A stretch of DNA of 60,888 bases, the filler included, from Coriobacteriales bacterium (GTDB lineage Bacteria > Actinomycetota > Coriobacteriia > Coriobacteriales > UBA8131), in NCBI GenBank assembly GCA_031263105.1. It is 5 parts of 5 records of this genome, joined end to end, with 100 filler letters (N's around TTAATTAATTAA, not from the genome) between each part and the next. Parts side by side here need not be neighbours in the genome. Positions count along the whole stretch, not along the records: positions 50,978 to 60,888 come from JAISGJ010000219.1; 4 more parts are not named here. One strand, written 5' to 3'. A program made the position numbers and the translations under genes. Below are positions 11,185 to 60,888 of the stretch, piece by piece; within the stretch, counting starts at the first letter, position 1, and each line of letters starts with the position of its first letter. The notes beneath the pieces are model-generated. The model saw only the letters and a list, made by a program, of their open reading frames with translations. It was not told where the DNA came from and made no database searches.

Positions 11185-11616
11185 TCATGTGGGTAGTTTG
11201 GCCATGCAGTATTGGGTGAGGCCCAACTCCCTGTTGGTGGTGAGGCGGATGATCTCAAAGCCTTTGTGCATGTAGATATTCATGGAGCGTTCCGCGTAGG
11301 TCTCAAGGCACAGGGGGATGCGCAGGCGTTCCGCGCGGGCGATGACCGGGTCAAAAAGCGCGCTCAGTACGCCTCGGCCCCGGTAGTGCGGGTTCACGCA
11401 TGCGGCGGCCAGGTAACCGTAACCATCAGGAAAAGCCTGCGTACACCAGGAGTCGCTGTCCAGGACTTTCAAGCGGTGCGCGTGTTCTCTGATCAGGCGC
11501 GCCTCGGCTGTGCTCAGAGTGCTGCAACCACGCTGGAGCCCGCGCTCCCAGAGCGCCGCGTAGTCGGCGGAGCTAAAGGCACCCGCCGTGTCAAAGAGCA
11601 GCGTGCCGGCCGGCAG
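11185..11616 (-). CDS. GNAT-family acetyltransferase, 5'-partial at contig end
   Basis: YLAAACVNPHYRGRGV, CLETY and IYMHKGF motifs; the frame stays open up to the N-gap. Confidence 0.75.
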   Translation of the reverse strand: MPAGTLLFDTAGAFSSADYAALWERGLQRGCSTLSTAEARLIREHAHRLKVLDSDSWCTQAFPDGYGYLAAACVNPHYRGRGVLSALFDPVIARAERLRIPLCLETYAERSMNIYMHKGFEIIRLTTNRELGLTQYCMAKLPT

Positions 11617-11716
11617 NNNNNNNNNNNNNNNNNNNNNNNNNNNNNNNNNNNNNNNNNNNNTTAATTAATTAANNNNNNNNNNNNNNNNNNNNNNNNNNNN
11701 NNNNNNNNNNNNNNNN
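11617..11716. other. Artificial contig linker
   Basis: N44-TTAATTAATTAA-N44 (stops in six frames). Confidence 0.98.
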
Positions 11717-12006
11717 TTCATCTCCACTGTCATCCCGAGCCTGCCGAGGGATCCTCGACGTGCCAAGTCTCAGTCTCCTTTCCTGCATTCCTTCATCTCC
11801 ACTGTCATCCCGAGCCTGCCGAGGGATCCTCGACCGCGCCAGCGGTCGACCGCAGGCCGAGGGGCCCTGCGACCTGCCGTTGGACACTGCGTGATCCGTG
11901 GGCCTGCCGGCCCGTCCTCGCTGAAAAAGCGATTGGTTTTGCGGGCGCTCGGACCCAAAGATTCCTCGGCGGAGCTCGGAATGACAGTGGGGGTGTGAAC
12001 TGTAAC
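11717..12006. mobile_element. MITE/REP-like palindromic element with duplicated left end, carrying 62 bp of the coding-hairpin element
   Basis: CACTGTCATCCCGAGC at about 11725 and 11800; right end GGAATGACAGTGGGGGTGTGAACTGTAAC. Confidence 0.8.
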
Positions 12007-19402: not shown

Positions 19403-20108
19403 GGGGCTCCGTTGTCCATTTGAAGGGGTCGTCGAAAGGCGGGGAGGCACCGGGAGGGGCAGTGCCTACATCGGGAGCGGTGGAAGCAGGGGCAGCGGTG
19501 GAGACCACCCCGGCGCTTCGCGCCGTCCGGGGGCCTGTCGGCCCGTTCTCGCTGGAAACGCTATGCGTTTCCCGGGCGCTCGAACCCCCTCCGAAGGAGG
19601 GGAATGTCGATGCCGCAGCCGTAGGGCCGGTGCCAGGGTTGTCGGGGGATGCAGGGTCGTCTGCATCCGCCTGCTCGTGGACGTGCTCCGCGCGCTTCTC
19701 CGCGCGCTTGTCGACGAACACGCTGCGCAGCTTGTCCGTCGCGCTCGTCAGCAGGTTGAGCGGGGCATCGGTGATGTCCGAGACCTTCTTTGCCGCCCCG
19801 CTGGCAACGCCGGTGACGTCCGAGACGTCGGACAGTATCTGGTCGGCGCGCATGATCTCGAGGTTGACGGCATCGACCGTCAGCGACACCCGCTCCAAGA
19901 GAGGGTCGACGCGCTTCAGGGACGGGTCGAGCGAATCCATGGCCGCATTGGCCCTGGCGACGGTGCCGTTGAGCGTCGGCACGAGGACATCGACGGACTC
20001 CCGCAGCTTCCGCACGGTCCTGATGACCTCGATCGCAACGGCTATCAAGGCGACGAGGAGCACGATGGCAACCGCTATGAGGATCATGGTCAGGAACTCT
20101 CCGCTCAT
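19368..20108 (-). CDS. DUF948/YoxC-like membrane-anchored coiled-coil protein whose tail contains the coding-hairpin element
   Basis: N-terminal TM helix followed by heptad-like region; start at MSGEFLT. Confidence 0.65.
   Translation of the reverse strand: MSGEFLTMILIAVAIVLLVALIAVAIEVIRTVRKLRESVDVLVPTLNGTVARANAAMDSLDPSLKRVDPLLERVSLTVDAVNLEIMRADQILSDVSDVTGVASGAAKKVSDITDAPLNLLTSATDKLRSVFVDKRAEKRAEHVHEQADADDPASPDNPGTGPTAAASTFPSFGGGSSARETHSVSSENGPTGPRTARSAGVVSTAAPASTAPDVGTAPPGASPPFDDPFKWTTEPHATGSTAGPDN
19504..19615 (-). repeat. 112-bp coding palindromic element, copy 1
   Basis: Colinear with 50193-50304 and 59750-59861; encodes ASTFPSFGGGSSARETHSVSSENGPTGPRTARSAGV. Confidence 0.92.
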
Positions 20109-20345: not shown

Positions 20346-20359
20346 TTCCACGGATACCC

Positions 20360-20678
20360 CACTGTCATTCCGAGCCTGCCGAGGAATCTTCGACCGCGCA
20401 GCGGTCGACCGCAGGCCGAAGGGCCTCCCAACCTACCGTTTCACTGTCATTCCGAGCCTGCCGAGGAATCTTCGACCGCGCAGCGGTCGACCGCAGGCCG
20501 AAGGGCCTTTCGGCCTACCGTTTCACTGTCATTCCGAGCCTGCCGAGGAATCTTCGACCGCGCAGCGGTCGACCGCAGGCCGAAGGGCCTTTCGGCCTAC
20601 CGTTGGTCGCTTTGCGATCAAAGATTCCTCGGCTTCGCTTCGCTACGCTCGGAATGACAGTGAGGTGTGAAAGGTAAC
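20360..20678. mobile_element. MITE/REP-like element with left part tandemly triplicated (~81-bp period)
   Basis: CACTGTCATTCCGAGCCTGCCGAGGAATCTTCGACCGCGCAGCGGTCGACC occurs three times; right end GGAATGACAGTGAGGTGTGAAAGGTAAC. Confidence 0.85.
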
Positions 20679-25220: not shown

Positions 25221-25336
25221 TTATTCCGACTTTTCACTTATTCCGCTTCTTTGAATAACCGCTGTTGTTCACTGTTGTTTCTTCCAAACATCGGAATAAG
25301 ATAAGACCTCCCATCAAGCGCGAACTGAACAGGAGG

Positions 25337-25436
25337 NNNNNNNNNNNNNNNNNNNNNNNNNNNNNNNNNNNNNNNNNNNNTTAATTAATTAANNNNNNNN
25401 NNNNNNNNNNNNNNNNNNNNNNNNNNNNNNNNNNNN
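25337..25436. other. Artificial contig linker
   Basis: N44-TTAATTAATTAA-N44. Confidence 0.98.
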
Positions 25437-25518
25437 TGGGAGCGCTCATAGCCCTTCTGAGGTAACAGAGGCCACAGGCCGCACCCTCCACAGACACCCC
25501 GCTGCCGCCCCGAGCCCC

Positions 25519-44672: not shown

Positions 44673-44715
44673 GGCAAGCCGAGCGACGCCGAGGACGCTG
44701 GGGACACGCCGGGGC

Positions 44716-44815
44716 NNNNNNNNNNNNNNNNNNNNNNNNNNNNNNNNNNNNNNNNNNNNTTAATTAATTAANNNNNNNNNNNNNNNNNNNNNNNNNNNNN
44801 NNNNNNNNNNNNNNN
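44716..44815. other. Artificial contig linker
   Basis: N44-TTAATTAATTAA-N44. Confidence 0.98.
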
Positions 44816-44898
44816 GGGGCGGCGGGCGGCGGGGCGGCGGCGGGGCCGGGCGGCGGCGGGGCGGCGGGGCGGCGGCGGGCGGCGGGGCGGCGGCGGGG

Positions 44899-49300: not shown

Positions 49301-50755
49301 TTCGGCTGCGGCGTGGACGCCCTGTCCGTCGGGCAGGTGCGGGAGGTGCTCGAAGGCGCGGGCAAGCCCTACACGGCGCTCAAGATGGACGAGATGGTCG
49401 ACCTCGCCGCCATCCGCATCCGCCTGCGCTCGCTTGCCGTCGCCCTCCAGGCGCGGGCGCGGCGGAAGACGGAAGGCGAAGGAGGCCATGGGGGAGTGCA
49501 GGCAGGGGAGAAGGCCGGCGAGGGGCCGCAGGGGCGCCGGGGGCCGCAGGGTCCTCGGGGGACAGGCGAGGGCCCACAGGGCCTCCGGGAGGCGCAGGGC
49601 CTTCGGCCCGTCCAACAGCCCGTCCAGCCCATCCGGGCAATCCGGCCCCCCTCGCCCTCTGTGCCGCTGCTCGTCATGCCTGCGCTCGCCCCCCGGCACC
49701 TTGCTGCCGTCAAGGGGGTCGTCGAGGAGGCGGGGCACCGCCTTGAACTTCTGCCCGAGTTGGGAACCCGGGACATCGATGCCGGCCTGCGCCTGTGCAA
49801 CAACGACCTCTGCCATCCGATGGTCGCGGTCGCCGGGCAGGTCGTCGAGGCCGTGCGCGGGTGTCGGGGGACCGCTCCCGTCACGGTCGTGGTCCCGCAG
49901 ATGTGCTGCGGCTGCCGTGCTATCGAGCTCGAGCAGGTCATACGCAGGCAGCTGGGGAAGCACCGACCAATTGCCTGTGCGCCATCTGGCCGCCATCTTG
50001 CGCACAGGCAATTGATCGGCACTTCCCTGGAAAGCGCCCCCGACAACGCCGACATCGAGGTCGTCGGACTGCCGAGCCGCACCGGCTCCCTCACCCTGTC
50101 CGCCCGGCTTGCAGCGCGCATCTACGACGCCCTCGCCGCCGCCGACCCCGCTTCCGACCCCGCCGCTCCCGCCCTCGCCCCGAAATCCACCTCGGCATCG
50201 ACATTCCCCTCCTCCGGAGGGGGTTCGAACGCCCGGAAAACGCACCGCGTTTTCAGCGAGAACGGGCCAGAAGGCCCTCGGACGGCGCGAAGCGCCGGGG
50301 CGGTCTCCACCGCTGCCGGTACCTCCTCCGCCCTCGATGCAGGCATTGCCCCCGCCGCTCCCGCCCCTCTCCCCCTGCCCCCCGTCGGCGTCGTCGGAAC
50401 CGCCGCGCTGCTCTATACGCCTCAGCTCAACCGCAGCCTCCTGCAGCGCATCGAGGCGGAGGGCTGCAGGCCGTGCATGCCGCCCTTCGTCGAGACGCTC
50501 ACCACGAACGCCCCTCTGGAACGCTTCGCCGGGCGCTTCGTCGATGCGGGGATACACGACATCGTCTGCGTGCAGAGCTTCGGCTGCCTGACCGGCCACG
50601 TCAACGGGCGCGGCGCGGCACGGCGGCTCAGGAGGCGCTACCCCGACCTGAACATCAGCTTCATCGACTACGACTCCGGCGCATCCGAGGTCAACCAGGA
50701 CAACCGCCTCAAGCTCGCCCTGACCCTCGCCCGCGAACGGGCCCGCATGTCGTAG
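46313..50755 (+). CDS. Large 2-hydroxyacyl-CoA dehydratase activase-like protein (two BadF/BadG/BcrA/D ATPase domains plus DUF2229-like region)
   Basis: GIDAGS twice, ELGGEDAK/DIGGQDIK, CAGGTG/CSSGCG, RCAVF/RCTVF, CYPAKLAHGH and SFGC motifs. Confidence 0.88.
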   Translation: MAYRLGIDAGSKTIKLVLLDEQGATVFSQYMLHRSDIVTTTRDVLHDTVWRFGDAEVTVCVTGSAGMRLAELLGVPHVQEVVSARHALGALVPEADAAIELGGEDAKVIYLTGGVEQRMNGSCAGGTGGFIDTMCALLGVRARQFNAMALGYQTVYPIASRCAVFAQADVRPLLNEGARRSDVAASILQAVVTQTVAGLSCGRPLKGTVVFLGGPFEVYPELVSRFRRTLGLTSAQAVKPPDAHLFVAKGAALLSAQEASAAVVGPASCATSLRALHDALAAAPLEEDGGIGRLGPLFGSEEELAAFRSRHGRHKVPRAPLMDATGGLFVGIDAGSTAVKLAALDEAGRLVYSGYEKSKGEVLEVARGMLEELYRSMPHEYGGDALVSIRHTKVTGYGERLLRVAFNADSGVVETVAHLRAAQAFDPEVDFVLDIGGQDIKCMRVRNGAVDDIMLNESCSSGCGALVDGFSRSLGFTPWGFSDVALLAPRPVDLGTRCTVFMTSRVRHAQKEGIGAPDIAAGLAYSVVRNALYKVIGCTDPARLGERVVVQGGTLKSDAVLRAFELESGLEAVRPDIAEMMGAYGAALLARDEGMGGRSGQGAGRAGGASSLLRPMELASLKRAQATRRCQGCTNNCLLTVNTFTPCGEDECAQGAPLAQRVLVTGNRCEQGGAEPGAAHGLPNLFAYERRLLASLGRQDGEREEGRAPTVGIPNVLDLYESYPFWRAFFSHLGLRVVGAQPSDSDTYRRGAHAVLSEGVCYPAKLAHGHVSRLVAEGADFVFMPTGGSVASAREGVCGAGRCLTVECPVSGGYARLVAEDLAGPDATGPDATARFLTCDLGSAAPLAQQLHRMLDEAGLVAGLSLDGRRVEAALAQAAHEQEAFYERLAERSGEVLARLEEEGARGIVLAGHPYHVDAGTSHGVDSLLGSLGFPVLSASGILAWHRTHGGTGGTPALGPASRDLVAATWTQPAALYEVARIVAAHECLDLVQLYSFGCGVDALSVGQVREVLEGAGKPYTALKMDEMVDLAAIRIRLRSLAVALQARARRKTEGEGGHGGVQAGEKAGEGPQGRRGPQGPRGTGEGPQGLREAQGLRPVQQPVQPIRAIRPPSPSVPLLVMPALAPRHLAAVKGVVEEAGHRLELLPELGTRDIDAGLRLCNNDLCHPMVAVAGQVVEAVRGCRGTAPVTVVVPQMCCGCRAIELEQVIRRQLGKHRPIACAPSGRHLAHRQLIGTSLESAPDNADIEVVGLPSRTGSLTLSARLAARIYDALAAADPASDPAAPALAPKSTSASTFPSSGGGSNARKTHRVFSENGPEGPRTARSAGAVSTAAGTSSALDAGIAPAAPAPLPLPPVGVVGTAALLYTPQLNRSLLQRIEAEGCRPCMPPFVETLTTNAPLERFAGRFVDAGIHDIVCVQSFGCLTGHVNGRGAARRLRRRYPDLNISFIDYDSGASEVNQDNRLKLALTLARERARMS
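50193..50304 (+). repeat. 112-bp coding palindromic element, copy 2
   Basis: Encodes ASTFPSSGGGSNARKTHRVFSENGPEGPRTARSAGA in frame. Confidence 0.92.
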
Positions 50756-50841: not shown

Positions 50842-50877
<36 letters not shown>

Positions 50878-50977
50878 NNNNNNNNNNNNNNNNNNNNNNN
50901 NNNNNNNNNNNNNNNNNNNNNTTAATTAATTAANNNNNNNNNNNNNNNNNNNNNNNNNNNNNNNNNNNNNNNNNNNN
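50878..50977. other. Artificial contig linker
   Basis: N44-TTAATTAATTAA-N44. Confidence 0.98.
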
Positions 50978-52738
50978 ATGCGCCAGTACGTCAACCTCTC
51001 CGACGAGCGCGCGATGATCCCGCGCCTCATGGAGCAGGCCACGTCCTTCGAGTACCTCGTCACGGAGAGCGAGCACGAGTCGCTCGTACTGGAGAAGAAC
51101 CTCATCAACCAGTATTCGCCGCCCTTCAACGTCGACTTCAAGGACGACAAGAGCTATCCCTTCATCGCGCTCACCAAGGGCGACGTCTTCCCCGCCCTCA
51201 AGTACACGCGCGAGAAGCAGGTCCCCTCGACGCGCTACTTCGGCCCCTACACCGACGCCCGCGCCGCGCGCACGATGATAGACGTCGCCCGCCGCGTGGT
51301 GCCGCTGTGCCACACGGGCTGCGTGGAGTGGAAGCGGCTCCGACGCAGGCTTGAAAGCGACCCGGAGCAGGCGCCCGCAGGCGACAAGCCCTGCTTCGAC
51401 CATCACGTCGGCCTCGGCCCCGGGCCCTGCGCAGGCGCCTGCACCCCTCAAGAGTACGCGGAGCACGTGCGCCGCATCGAGCGCTTCCTCTCCGGGCATC
51501 GCCGGGAGTTCCTCCGTGCGATGGAGCGCGAGATGCGGGCGGCGGCAGACGGGCTCGACTTCGAGCGCGCGGCTCGGACGAAGGCCCGCATCGAGACCGT
51601 GCGCTCGCTCGACGAGCGCCAGCACGTGCAGCTCTCCCCAAGGCTCTCCGCCGACGTCGTCGGCTTCTTCCGCGAGGAGACCGTCACGGGCGTCCATGTG
51701 CTCACGGTCCGCGAGGGGAGCGTCATCATCTCCAACGAGTTCGTGCTCGACAAGGGCCTCGACGTCTCCGGCGACGACCTCATCGACGGCTTCTTGGTGC
51801 GCTACTACGAGCAGGCGACCGACATTCCGCACGAGGTGGTGCTCGCTGCGGCTCCCGAGGACGCGCCGACCGTCGAGGAATGGCTCACCTCCAAGCTGGC
51901 ATCCCGTCACGGTGCCCGCGTGCGCCTGGCCGTCCCGGTGCGCGGGGAGCGCCACGAGCTGCTCGGGCTCGCCGAGCGCAACGCCCGCCACACGCTCATG
52001 CGCTACAAGGTGCGCACGCGCTACGACGAGGAGCGCATCAACACCGCCCTGCTGCAACTCGAAAGCGCGCTCGCGCTTCCACGCGCCCCTCTGCGCATCG
52101 AGTGCTTCGACGTCTCGACCATCCATGGGCGCCATTCGGTGGCCTCGATGGTGGTCTTCACGGCAGGCGGCCCCGACAAGTCGCAGTACCGGCGCTTCAA
52201 GGTGAGGCTCGATGCGGGCGAGGCGAACGACTTCGCCATGATGTCCGAGGTGCTGGGCCGCCGTTATTCCCCCGAGCGCATGGCCGACGGGCGCTTCGGC
52301 TCGAGGCCGGACCTGCTCATCGTCGACGGCGGCAAGCCGCAGCTGACCGCTGCGCTGCAGCAACTCGGACAGCTGGGGATCGACATCCCGGTCGCGGGGC
52401 TCGCGAAGTCCGACGAGGAGCTCTTCGTCCCCTGGGACAACGAAGGGCCCGTCGTGCTGCCGAGCGGCTCGGCGGCGCTGTACCTCGTGAAGCAGATACG
52501 CGACGAGGCGCACCGCTTCGCGATCGCCTTCCACCGCGAGCTGCGGGGCAAGGCCATGACGGCGAGCGTGCTCGACGAGGTGTGCGGGCTCGGCCCCAAG
52601 CGCAAGAAGGCCCTGCTGCGCGCCTTCGGCTCGTTCAAGCGCCTGCGCGAGGCGGGCGTCGAGGACATGGCCGCCGTCAAGGGCGTCCCCCGCGAGGTGG
52701 CCGAGGAGGTCTTCGCGGTCCTTCGCCAGCAGGAGTGA
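50978..52738 (+). CDS. uvrC: Excinuclease ABC subunit C, 5'-partial (GIY-YIG start lost in gap)
   Basis: KDDKSYP, YFGPY, IECFDVS, VDGGKPQ, IRDEAHRFA and HhH tail. Confidence 0.95.
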   Translation: MRQYVNLSDERAMIPRLMEQATSFEYLVTESEHESLVLEKNLINQYSPPFNVDFKDDKSYPFIALTKGDVFPALKYTREKQVPSTRYFGPYTDARAARTMIDVARRVVPLCHTGCVEWKRLRRRLESDPEQAPAGDKPCFDHHVGLGPGPCAGACTPQEYAEHVRRIERFLSGHRREFLRAMEREMRAAADGLDFERAARTKARIETVRSLDERQHVQLSPRLSADVVGFFREETVTGVHVLTVREGSVIISNEFVLDKGLDVSGDDLIDGFLVRYYEQATDIPHEVVLAAAPEDAPTVEEWLTSKLASRHGARVRLAVPVRGERHELLGLAERNARHTLMRYKVRTRYDEERINTALLQLESALALPRAPLRIECFDVSTIHGRHSVASMVVFTAGGPDKSQYRRFKVRLDAGEANDFAMMSEVLGRRYSPERMADGRFGSRPDLLIVDGGKPQLTAALQQLGQLGIDIPVAGLAKSDEELFVPWDNEGPVVLPSGSAALYLVKQIRDEAHRFAIAFHRELRGKAMTASVLDEVCGLGPKRKKALLRAFGSFKRLREAGVEDMAAVKGVPREVAEEVFAVLRQQE

Positions 52739-59032: not shown

Positions 59033-60807
59033 GGCTGCCCGCCCTGCTCGCCATACTCGACGGGGTCGGCATCGCCGCCCCCTCGCCCACGAACGCCGTG
59101 ACCAGCGCCGACGCCCCCTTCCTGCAGGGGCTCTTCGGCGGCGCCGTCTGGCCCTGCCGCCTGCTCGGCGCCTCGGGGCGCGACGTCGGCCTGCCCGAGG
59201 GGCAGATGGGCAACTCCGAGGTGGGGCACCTCAACATCGGGGCCGGCCGCGTCGTGGACCAGGAGCTGACCCGCATCGACCGCGCCATCGAGGAGGGGGC
59301 CCTGCGCGGGAACCCAGCCCTGCTCGCGGCCTTCGAGGCCGCGCGGGAGCGGGGCACGGCCGTGCATCTCATGGGCCTGCTCTCCGACGGCGGCGTCCAC
59401 AGCATGGACGGCCATCTGAGGGCACTGCTTGCGATGGCCGCCGACTGCGGGGTGCGACGCATCCGCGTCGACGCCTTCCTCGACGGGCGCGACGTGCCCC
59501 CTGCCAGCGGGAAGGCCTACGTGGAGCGCATCTGCGCCTTCCTGCGGGGGCTTAAGGAGGCCCATCCCGGCCTCGACGCGCGCATAGGGATGCTCGCGGG
59601 GCGCTACTATGCCATGGACCGCGACAACCGCTGGGAGCGCGTCGAGCGGGCCTGGCGGGCGCTGGTCGTGCCCGGTGCGTCCGACGGTGCCGAGTCTGTC
59701 GCGCCCACAGCGTCCGCAGCGCCCGACGGTGCCGCCCCGTTCGCCGCTTCGGCATCGACATTTCCCTCCTTCGGAGGGGGTCCGAGCGCCCGGGAAACGC
59801 GCAGCGTTTCCCGCGCGGACGGGCCGACAGGCCCATGGACGGCGCGAAGCGCCGGGGTGGTTCTCCCGGCCGTCGACTCCTCTGCGATCGCCCCCGCAGA
59901 CGCCGACCCCGCGCACCTGGTGCAGGCCTCCTACGACGCCGGCGTGACCGACGAGTTCGTCGTGCCGGTCGCCATCGGGGAGGACGCCCTGGCCAGCGGG
60001 GACAGCGTCGTCTTCTTCAACTTCCGCCCCGACCGTGCGCGCGAGCTCACCCGCGCCCTCATCGACCCTGCGTTCACGGGCTTCGTGCGCCCCTCCGTGC
60101 CGGAGCTTGCCTACGTCTGCATGACGGAGTACGACCCCGCCTTCGAGCGCGACCTCGGCGCACGGGTCGCCTTCCCCAAGGCCTTCCCGGAGAACGTGCT
60201 CGCCGACTGCCTGGCCTCGCACGGCCTCAGGCAGCTGCACATCGCCGAGACGGAGAAGTACGCGCACGTGACCTTCTTCTTCAACGGGGGCGTGGAGGAG
60301 CCGAAGCCCGGGGAGCAGCGCATCCTCGTCCCCAGCCCCAAGGCGGCGACCTACGACCTCAAGCCGCAGATGAGCGCACCTGAGCTCACGCGGGCGCTGG
60401 TGGGCGCCATCGAGTCCGACGCGGCCGACGTCTACATCGTCAACTACGCCAACGGAGACATGGTGGGCCATACCGGCAGCCTTCCGGCGGCGGTTGAGGC
60501 CATGGAGGCGGTGGACCGGGGGCTCAAGTGCGTCATCGACGCGATCGTCGGGGCGGGCGGCGTCGCGCTCGTCACCGCCGACCACGGCAATGCCGAGCAG
60601 ATGGCCGACGTCGAGGGCGGCGCATGGACGGCGCACACGCTCTCGCCGGTCCCGCTCGTCCTCATCGCTCCGGGAGACGACCGGGCCGACCTCGACCGCA
60701 GCGCCCCCGCGCGCCTCGCCGACGTCGCCCCGACCCTGCTCGACCTCATAGGCCTCCCCGTCCCCGAGGAGTGGACCGGTCGCTCGCTGCTTGTGCGCCG
60801 TGGTTGA
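59029..60807 (+). CDS. gpmI: 2,3-BPG-independent phosphoglycerate mutase with an in-frame repeat-element insertion
   Basis: MGNSEVGH, SDGGVHS, GRYYAMDRD, FNFRPDRA, AETEKYAHVT, DMVGHTG and TADHGNAE motifs. Confidence 0.97.
   Translation: MRLPALLAILDGVGIAAPSPTNAVTSADAPFLQGLFGGAVWPCRLLGASGRDVGLPEGQMGNSEVGHLNIGAGRVVDQELTRIDRAIEEGALRGNPALLAAFEAARERGTAVHLMGLLSDGGVHSMDGHLRALLAMAADCGVRRIRVDAFLDGRDVPPASGKAYVERICAFLRGLKEAHPGLDARIGMLAGRYYAMDRDNRWERVERAWRALVVPGASDGAESVAPTASAAPDGAAPFAASASTFPSFGGGPSARETRSVSRADGPTGPWTARSAGVVLPAVDSSAIAPADADPAHLVQASYDAGVTDEFVVPVAIGEDALASGDSVVFFNFRPDRARELTRALIDPAFTGFVRPSVPELAYVCMTEYDPAFERDLGARVAFPKAFPENVLADCLASHGLRQLHIAETEKYAHVTFFFNGGVEEPKPGEQRILVPSPKAATYDLKPQMSAPELTRALVGAIESDAADVYIVNYANGDMVGHTGSLPAAVEAMEAVDRGLKCVIDAIVGAGGVALVTADHGNAEQMADVEGGAWTAHTLSPVPLVLIAPGDDRADLDRSAPARLADVAPTLLDLIGLPVPEEWTGRSLLVRRG
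59750..59861 (+). repeat. 112-bp coding palindromic element, copy 3 (inside gpmI)
   Basis: Encodes ASTFPSFGGGPSARETRSVSRADGPTGPWTARSAGV in frame. Confidence 0.92.
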
Positions 60808-60808
60808 G

Positions 60809-60862
60809 TTTCGTGACAGAGGGGACGGTACTGTTTTTCGTGACAGAGGGGACGGGACTGTT
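60809..60862. repeat. 27-bp direct repeat x2 (TTTCGTGACAGAGGGGACGGKACTGTT)
   Basis: Directly visible just after the gpmI stop. Confidence 0.8.
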
Positions 60863-60888
60863 TTTGAATCACCCGCGCCAGCGGGGGC

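Follow-up and report, generated by a model that had tools for sequence, protein, structure and literature searches.

An in-frame, nested multi-hairpin repeat in gpmI and other unrelated genes of a Coriobacteriales bacterium

The window considered here is a stretch of 60,888 nucleotides, filler included, from a Coriobacteriales bacterium (assembly GCA_031263105.1), in which several contigs are joined with N spacers. Three of its long open reading frames (ORFs), coding for a phosphoglycerate mutase (gpmI), an activase and a DUF948-like protein, each contain one copy of a multi-hairpin repeat (Table 1). A preliminary description of this DNA had reported three colinear copies of a 112-bp stretch, all read in one sense frame and giving one peptide, and this was borne out for positions, strands, frame and peptide alike. 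Indeed, the common frame reads ..ASTFPS(F/S)GGG..ARSAG.. in all three copies, the mean column identity is 86% over their 171-column alignment, and on blastn the gpmI 112-mer matches the other two over 112 nt each, at 92% (E 5e-41) and 85% (E 4e-30). The flanks of the three copies show codon usage and composition of coding type. For the DUF948-like protein the Pfam score is 24.4 bits against a cut-off of 37.2 (E 3.3e-5), and an Atlas feature matches DUF948 clusters at 0.95.

Table 1. Coordinates of the repeat copies, their parts and their host genes in the window (contig coordinates, where given, follow the contig handle).
Feature	Position	Strand	Basis or remark
Host gene gpmI, 2,3-bisphosphoglycerate-independent phosphoglycerate mutase, 592 aa	59029..60807	+	ORF; Pfam PF06415 (iPGM_N), PF01676 (Metalloenzyme)
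Lineage-specific gpmI insert, residues 215-288	59671..59892	+	element plus ~70 nt of Ala/Pro/Ser-rich 5' flank
gpmI copy of the element (5' and 3' profile parts merged)	59741..59912	+	nhmmer, C226:8764-8935; Dxs-type 3' tail
Hairpin 1, TCCCTCC / TTC / GGAGGGG	59763..59779	+	stem kept in 6/6 composites, in one via a U-G pair
Inner module (hairpins 2 and 3)	59780..59840	+	net +60 nt compared with copies without the module
Hairpin 4, GGCGC / GAA / GCGCC	59841..59853	+	covarying stem; GCCCC/GGGGC in other copies of the genome
Host gene, fused CoA-enzyme activase, 1480 aa	46313..50755	+	ORF; Pfam BcrAD_BadFG, DUF2229
Composite in activase, sense frame	50186..50355	+	C224:5371-5540
Left arm of 24/25-nt direct repeat at activase copy; candidate target duplication	50158..50181	+	
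Right arm of 24/25-nt direct repeat at activase copy	50350..50374	+	
Host gene, DUF948-like membrane protein, 269 aa	19368..20177	-	ORF; Pfam DUF948 below threshold
Composite in C-terminal tail of DUF948-like protein, sense frame	19456..19622	-	C222:7740-7906

The whole genome (2,905,931 bases in 250 contigs, 64.5% G+C) was searched with the gpmI 112-mer by blastn, which gave 124 matches; the sequencing run that contains 94% of the sampled words has the sample label termite gut metagenome. Six matches are full composites (C226, which is the gpmI copy, C222, C43, C110, C117 and C224) that cover at least 111 of the 112 positions with identities of 84.8-100% (E 4e-30 to 2e-53). Most of the others cover positions 29-90/105 only and represent an inner module, of which 93 were extracted. 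At four further loci (C126, C190, C77 and C12) query positions 1-30 and 92-112 are matched directly adjoining each other, so that hairpin 1 is joined to hairpin 4 with nothing in between; hence an outer element exists without the middle part. This outer element is ~110 nt long and consists of a 6-bp closing stem (GCATCG/CGATGY, the only terminal complementarity of the element) and three further stems, namely hairpin 1, hairpin 4 and GGGGTGGT/ACCGCCCC. In the composite, of ~170 nt, a 60-nt module of two hairpins is nested between hairpins 1 and 4. Homology between the coding copies extends ~50 nt 3' of the 112-mer, up to ..CCGCCCCCGATGTGGGC, and the gpmI and Dxs copies have in common a different 3' tail. 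In most copies the borders of homology are sharp and lie at similar points (GCGGCATCGA ... GATGTGGGC). The 112-bp stretch first taken for the element had thus to be replaced by a composite with a nested module and a longer 3' part, and the forecast of many more copies genome-wide holds only modestly, for six full composites and 18 coding pieces, the >90 further matches being the inner module in non-coding repeats.

RNAalifold analysis of the six composites gives 49 pairs, which make up the closing stem, hairpins 1-4 and, as a fifth stem, GGGGTGGT/ACCGCCCC. Folded alone as RNA, the gpmI copy reaches -87.3 kcal/mol over 165 nt (z -2.05) and shows the closing stem and four hairpins, in agreement with the consensus hairpins; the corresponding DNA fold has a z of -2.97. 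At 11 loci compared with Rfam, only two tRNAs and an RNase P RNA nearby matched at or above the gathering score, and with E up to 1 no family lies over the element and there is no intron or ribozyme match.

Genome-wide, the inner module occurs mostly in non-coding repeats and also in tandem arrays, with 0 or 1 module per coding copy and runs of up to four in the intergenic arrays. Its other setting is an intergenic repeat of high abundance, ~240 nt long and with CCCCACTGTCATTCCGAGCC at its ends; short-BLAST matches number 809 for the end of this repeat and 67 for the inner module. In the window, the intergenic repeat is present as three 82-nt units in tandem upstream of the gene for the DUF948-like protein (20359-20605), and just 3' of the gpmI stop codon (60810-60870) are two copies of TTCGTGACAGAGGGGACGG.ACTGTTTTT, each terminated by a T-run, that may be terminators or repeat ends. 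A run of 18-nt units CCCCACTGCCACCCCGAG is seen near a contig end (44558-44701). A 109-nt 'repeat family', D1 (11604-11728, 25324-25448, 44703-44827 and 50865-50989), was discarded as it coincides with the N spacers and is no biological repeat.

Coding copies were searched for with profiles of the 5' and 3' parts of the element together with a codon-usage score trained on 428 long ORFs. This gave 18 coding copies or fragments, 13 in sense and 5 in antisense orientation; 12 are near full length and all 12 lie within ORFs. Host names were taken from Pfam, CimA, CopA, SufS and HolB being labels chosen for the domain sets. In sense orientation the hosts are GpmI, the DUF948-like protein, the C-terminal part of a CCG-domain protein, the N-terminal region of an Aminotran_5 (SufS-like) protein, the activase, Dxs, a class I/II aminotransferase (Aminotran_1_2), an ATPase with a 30-nt remnant in the linker between its two ABC_tran domains, a DUF4430 protein, a DNA_pol3_delta2 (HolB-like) protein with a remnant in its N-terminal region, a 3793-aa protein without a Pfam match and a 2669-aa Big-domain protein with two partial copies. 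The antisense copies, also in one fixed frame, lie in PheT, in an HMGL-like/LeuA_dimer (citramalate/isopropylmalate-synthase-like) protein, here CimA, in a P-type ATPase with an HMA domain, here CopA, in the same 2669-aa Big-domain protein and in a stretch upstream of a MurJ domain. The statement that all copies are in sense orientation, correct for the three in the window, does not therefore extend to the genome. As a statistic, location 'always inside genes' was set aside, since 12 of 12 has a chance of ~16% under random insertion at an assumed coding density of ~86%. The informative contrast is that between the coding element and the intergenic repeat family, whose 534 classified end motifs were found 501 times in DNA without coding signal, 30 times at ORF ends and 3 times inside genes.

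Other repeat-derived or low-complexity segments were observed in some of these proteins. The SufS-like gene (C117:694-2529) has a second in-frame insert of ~330 nt built from the intergenic repeat family and composed of 4-5 CCCCACTGTCACCCCGG units in tandem, a part in the centre and units in inverted orientation. Its translation is ..PLSPRAPLSPRAPLS..GDSGARGDSGG.., and a 15-nt direct repeat GGGCCTGGAGG(T/C)GGG borders it on either side. A second low-complexity insert (..GPQGRRGPQGPRGTGEGPQGL..) is present in the activase, and in the giant surface proteins encoded on C3 and C190 there are several peptides that stem from repeats, among them TVIPS units, the translation of ACTGTCATTCCGAGC.

The coding copies use two of the six possible frames, all stop-free and with the frame of the host kept. 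The sense frame reads ..AASTFPSFGG..ARSAGVVST.. in 13/13 sense pieces and the antisense frame ..SPTS..VETTPALRATPPKEGN.DAA.. in 5/5 antisense pieces. When two copies were translated in six frames, 4/6 frames were stop-free in the C222 composite, where one of the stops falls in a variant private to that copy, and 5/6 in the outer-only copy of C126; in the ten copies found first, four to six frames per copy have an ORF spanning the core. The two used frames have the best codon score within their own orientation. Moreover, their share of Arg+Lys is 0.03-0.10 compared with 0.10-0.40 in the others, the lowest value being tied in the antisense outer-only copy, and Cys and Trp are absent from the sense frame, with at most one Cys in the antisense frame. 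This frame pattern is what a filter on the translated product would leave, and a codon-phase preference for the target could give the same.

Variation among the six composites was compared with the predicted structure over 114 core columns. Variable columns amount to 10/78 of the paired and 18/36 of the unpaired positions (Fisher p 4e-5), while variable sites by codon position 1, 2 and 3 are 11, 11 and 6 of 38, and three pairs show compensatory double changes. Given that variation follows pairing and not codon position, the copies conserve the hairpins and not the peptide.

In order to compare the host proteins with their orthologs, four of them were aligned with sequences from related genomes. 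Matches were found in 28/31 genomes for GpmI, 20/21 for PheT, 21/21 for Dxs and 19/21 for CimA, the source genome included in each case, and the insert is present in 0/24, 0/19, 0/19 and 0/11 of the aligned orthologs respectively, the match being broken around the insert in every relative. None of the orthologs thus has the peptide that an ancestral segment would have left in them, and this origin was rejected. Unrelated short inserts of their own are carried at the same sites by three relatives for GpmI and by at least one each for PheT and CimA; hence these sites tolerate insertions. At the DNA level, a search of 40 relatives with the composite returned matches to the inner module or to the doublet of hairpins 1 and 4 only, in 5/40. 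In 300 other genomes of the order, searched with the outer element and with two candidates per genome scored, coding-type flanks were not found; the doublet part only was present in three genomes of the family, along with one weak 28-nt match. The copies inspected in three relatives lie in DNA without coding signal, which is indicative only as the codon model was trained on the source genome. The insert peptide (GpmI residues 226-300) retrieved its own protein only among 592 candidates in a protein search, at a size for which matches of 40-50 bits cannot pass. An exact pattern of the coding-type 5' end and hairpin 1 had 0 hits in genome contigs and 0 in metagenome contigs, collections from which the records of the source genome were possibly left out.

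Misassembly of the copies had been named as an outcome that would undo the finding. A 660-nt Logan contig of run X1 spans window positions 59614-60273 with 2 differences and no gap and bridges the whole gpmI insert, and the same gene continues in the same frame on both sides of the inserts. Since this run is probably that of the source sample, the contig represents a second assembler and not a second sample. No read contig over gpmI links the two flanks cleanly in the manner of an empty site; where joints leave out 287 nt, their sides are short and 85% alike, and they probably belong to gpmI of other organisms, and a 93%-alike contig of a second run (X2) ends at the 3' edge of the element in gpmI and is uninformative either way. 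Among the sequencing runs listed as containing this DNA, none was of RNA. Furthermore, the 86%-complete assembly contains no second copy of GpmI or PheT, and the sole other match to Dxs in the genome is 35% identical and confined to the C-terminal half.

The consequences for the protein were followed in GpmI. Compared with the solved chain 1EJJ, residues 3-214 and 289-590 align to 4-207 and 211-511, and residues 215-288 correspond to 3 residues of 1EJJ. Despite the insert, GpmI retains the residue at each column that is invariant across a 25-sequence alignment, in line with the earlier remark that its catalytic motifs are intact. The AlphaFold2 model built with that alignment has a mean predicted local distance difference test score (pLDDT) of 84.8, with 404/592 residues at or above 90; residues 220-281, between helices 202-213 and 294-303, have a pLDDT below 50. 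On Foldseek, the best target-normalised TM-score of the model against iPGM structures is 0.94, with 4MY4. In the model, the insert is therefore a low-confidence loop on an intact fold and is compatible with that fold. As for the other hosts, the inserts of PheT, Dxs and the ABC ATPase lie between Pfam domains, and the domain models of GpmI, CimA, the aminotransferase and the SufS-like protein are each matched in two stretches. The break in GpmI falls at the insert, iPGM_N ending at residue 216, and the inserts of CimA and the class I/II aminotransferase lie immediately beyond the end of the listed domain stretch or ahead of its start.

The ends of the 12 near-full-length copies were examined for direct repeats in 70 nt of flank on each side, with 132 mismatched flank pairs as a control. 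The activase copy has its 24/25-nt repeat right at the ends (score 17.5, control maximum 16.5) and the CimA copy a 17-nt repeat (score 12, control 95th percentile 11.7); a 10-nt GCC-repeat match is seen at the PheT copy, and the nine others have no flanking repeat above background. Candidate target-site duplications, which had been considered for this element, are seen at the activase and CimA copies and not at those nine. GARGAGV and GARGRGT border the 43 codons inserted in CimA, a duplication of the peptide GARGxGx at a place where ..KRAGIGV occurs once in the closest ortholog. In the 5' flank of the gpmI copy (59680-59745) a 16-nt direct repeat GCG(T/C)CCGACGGTGCCG occurs twice, 45 nt apart, and brackets ..GCGCCCACAGCG.., which resembles the 3' end of the element in antisense and may be the trace of an earlier insertion.

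Transposases of the Y1 (IS200) type are not known to leave a target duplication, and ordinary target duplications are short and of fixed length. The long and variable duplications seen here fit neither; at 15-25 nt, where present, they speak against a Y1 transposase and suggest that cuts were staggered or that the template was switched. The genome has four matches to Y1_Tnp (PF01797). One of these genes (C168:12773-13138) is flanked by 18-nt inverted repeats CCTCACTGTCATTGCCAT / ATGGCAATGACAGTGGGG, the outer 13 nt of which match the 809-hit end of the intergenic repeat with one mismatch in one arm and do not match the coding element. This gene is hence a candidate partner (REPtron/TIRtron) of the intergenic family rather than of the coding repeat.

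The doublet of hairpins 1 and 4 was also looked for outside the order. Written as a 34-letter IUPAC pattern, it occurs exactly at 111 loci of a species-representative genome collection, in records labelled Oscillospiraceae, Acidobacteriota, Defluviitaleaceae, Rickettsiales (a metagenome-assembled genome, MAG), Advenella (including a cultured strain), Cellvibrio, Muribaculaceae and others. With up to 2 mismatches, five genomes contain 47, 19, 15, 7 and 7 copies, and the reversed pattern 0 in each. Among 80 doublet loci, the two free stem positions are complementary in 78/80 and 80/80 copies, with seven stem types, and the loop of hairpin 1 has 12 different dinucleotides; the stem sequence of hairpin 1 is fixed and that of hairpin 4 covaries across phyla. 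Similarity beyond the pattern consists of ..TTC before the doublet and TGGT after it, and no Rfam family matches the doublet. As a DNA mini-hairpin GCGAAGC is unusually stable, and C(UUCG)G is a stable RNA tetraloop. An ORF with at least 60 aa on both sides spans 14/80 loci, mostly in Arg-rich frames that were taken as non-coding. Within 1.2 kb of the 80 loci no gene recurs in different organisms, if translated repeat and three UvrA matches due to chance are set aside, and a repeated sequence upstream of the Acidobacteriota copies proved not to be the end of a real gene. A Y1 transposase as mobiliser of the doublet is likewise unsupported, given that four of the five other doublet-bearing genomes have no PF01797 match.

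Taken together, we consider it likely that the coding element is a selfish repeat of the kind of Rickettsia palindromic elements (RPEs) and of intragenic repetitive extragenic palindromic (REP) sequences, translated as a tolerated loop. The 112-mer would then be the core of a non-autonomous multi-hairpin repeat that spread by copying to many genes within a single lineage. Persisting copies would be those that add a multiple of three bases, are read in one of the two least basic frames and lie in variable loops, domain linkers or protein ends. Such an insert would be transcribed and translated with its host gene as a disordered hydrophilic loop tolerated by the enzyme, with the nucleic-acid hairpins as the conserved feature and the peptide as a by-product. 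Translation, neutrality or near-neutrality and the mode of copying are what we infer here. Several points weigh against this proposal. The genome is a MAG with 86% completeness and 6.5% contamination, in 250 contigs, and the frame pattern is the one argument for translation. The pairing-bias test is partly circular because the six sequences tested also served to predict the structure, and compensation is no proof of selection at the present sites because the changes may predate insertion, having arisen in source copies. Flanking repeats exceed the 95th percentile in 2/12 copies only, and the flanks are of low complexity. No source copy outside genes, no mobilising gene and no empty site in a strain of the same species were found, and some copies sit at protein ends (the SufS-like N-terminus, the HolB-like protein and the stretch upstream of the MurJ domain), maybe outside the true coding region.

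Other explanations have to be weighed against the same data. The inserts could have spread between genes by ectopic recombination or template switching between GC-rich low-complexity stretches coding for Ala and Pro, with no transposition specific to the element, which is a variant of the selfish-repeat reading with another mechanism and which we hold to be unlikely. The flanks of nearly all copies are indeed rich in Ala, Pro and Gly, the flanking direct repeats are long and variable (10, 17 and 24 nt, and ~15 nt at the second SufS insert), no transposase partner was found, and there is one frame per orientation, as if the codon phase of the target set the frame. However, the sharp and similar borders of homology in most copies look like the ends of a defined element, and at the site in question the orthologs of CimA and GpmI are free of low-complexity tracts. 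Somewhat less probable still, in our view, is a selected functional module, in which the hairpins would act in mRNA or DNA, through ribosome pausing at domain boundaries, mRNA stabilisation or factor binding, or the peptide would serve as a flexible linker. The compensatory changes in the coding copies, the fixed stem of hairpin 1 and covarying stem of hairpin 4 across phyla and the location of several inserts between Pfam domains (PheT, Dxs, ABC ATPase) speak for it. Yet the hosts are functionally unrelated and both orientations are seen, the peptide is not conserved and shows no third-position excess among the variable sites, all 24, 19, 19 and 11 orthologs manage without the insert, and elsewhere the same modules are overwhelmingly intergenic; moreover, conservation of the hairpins would be no less expected if copying were restricted to structured copies.

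The very stable fold (-87 kcal/mol over 165 nt) and the direct repeats at some copies, which in principle could serve as take-off and landing sites, raise the question of whether the insert ever reaches the protein. Removal from the RNA or bypass by the ribosome would free frame, length and stops, yet 18/18 pieces are stop-free, in the host frame and in the two mildest of six frames; together with the lack of an Rfam intron or ribozyme match, this makes such a route very improbable. An intein was rejected as inteins are far longer than the insert and the frames here are tightly constrained. The least credible explanation is an artefact of assembly or binning by chimeric contigs at repeats: the MAG is fragmented and many contig ends fall in repeats, but the same gene in the same frame flanks each insert, the Logan contig crosses the gpmI insert, though probably from the same reads, and copies that are 8-15% divergent are not collapsed repeats. 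A further proposal concerns the doublet itself, which might be a ~35-50-nt mobile unit of an undescribed kind that crosses phyla and whose coding derivative here, with target duplications of 15-25 nt, would survive as translated loops. We regard this as doubtful. If true, it would imply a new copying mechanism, possibly dependent on host factors, and a source of new protein segments, and a doublet that truly moved between phyla would represent minimal mobile DNA of a new kind.

The likening to RPEs, made when only the window had been read, stands for a structured in-frame repeat in unrelated genes, specific to a lineage and at insertion-tolerant sites, while anatomy and orientation needed correction. 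In the passages cited, RPEs are ~150 bp long and each encode a conserved peptide; in R. conorii they occur in frame within metabolic genes that are unrelated to one another, and a similar mechanism in other prokaryotes is called 'conceivable' (PMC10969869). RPE-1 to RPE-3 are described as frequent in ORFs in a second source (PMC3767692). As far as these passages go, the element resembles RPEs in being a palindromic repeat of the ~100-150-bp type, in frame in unrelated metabolic and housekeeping genes, with a recurring peptide, intact hosts and, here as judged from the GpmI model only, an insert at a site that the fold would tolerate. The likeness meant here is one of behaviour. In contrast to RPEs, the present element belongs to a GC-rich termite-gut host, is modular with a nested second repeat, occurs in both orientations, has flanking direct repeats of 15-25 nt at some copies and has a core doublet found in distant phyla.

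REP sequences of the GTAG/CGTC type are, according to the section cited, found inside known genes of several species, most of all in Opitutus terrae and R. conorii, as tolerated selfish DNA (Di Nocera et al. 2013, PMC3733652). The same section describes GC-rich stem-loops, normally extragenic, whose units or dimers encode 20-30 residues when in genes (PMC3733652), which is the likeness to the present case, while a five-stem unit of 110-170 nt differs from a palindrome of 20-40 bp. No REP tag is present at hairpin 1 in this genome, which is preceded by ATT (GTC in C12) in the 12 near-full-length coding copies and by AATT/CATT in intergenic copies; at the doublet, a GTAG tag occurs in the Acidobacteriota copies only, as GTAGTC-CCCTCC. 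Unlike transposable elements of the miniature inverted-repeat type (MITEs), which are non-autonomous and derive from DDE insertion sequences, the element has no fixed short target duplication, as repeats of 10, 17 and 24 nt are found at 2-3/12 copies. An internal module in variable number between conserved flanks is common to this element and the BOX repeats of S. pneumoniae (boxA-boxB(n)-boxC), in architecture only; BOX is essentially intergenic whereas here the module-bearing form lies in coding frames. The enterobacterial RU/ERIC repeats are, in the portion cited, MITE-like intergenic repeats with open frames that occur occasionally in genes (Delihas 2007, PMC2759123); intragenic copies are exceptional in that account, compared with 12/12 near-full-length coding-type copies in ORFs here. 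Literature searches by topic and by 21-nt doublet strings returned no description of this element. Since RPEs and intragenic REPs have already been described, the kind is known; what is new is the family, the host group, the nested modular build, the use of both orientations and the long flanking repeats.

Palindromic repeats that code for protein were initially regarded as peculiar to Rickettsia, and intragenic REPs of a few species were noted afterwards. The element provides a dense and well-delimited case of coding repeats in an uncultured, GC-rich termite-gut bacterium, in unrelated genes that are for the most part essential. At least ten enzymes are affected, including the single-copy GpmI and PheT as well as Dxs. 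The long flanking duplications constrain the insertion mechanism, and the nested modular build ties the coding copies to the intergenic repeats of the same genome. Finally, that the copies keep strictly to two of six frames is an argument for translated inserts that have been filtered by selection.

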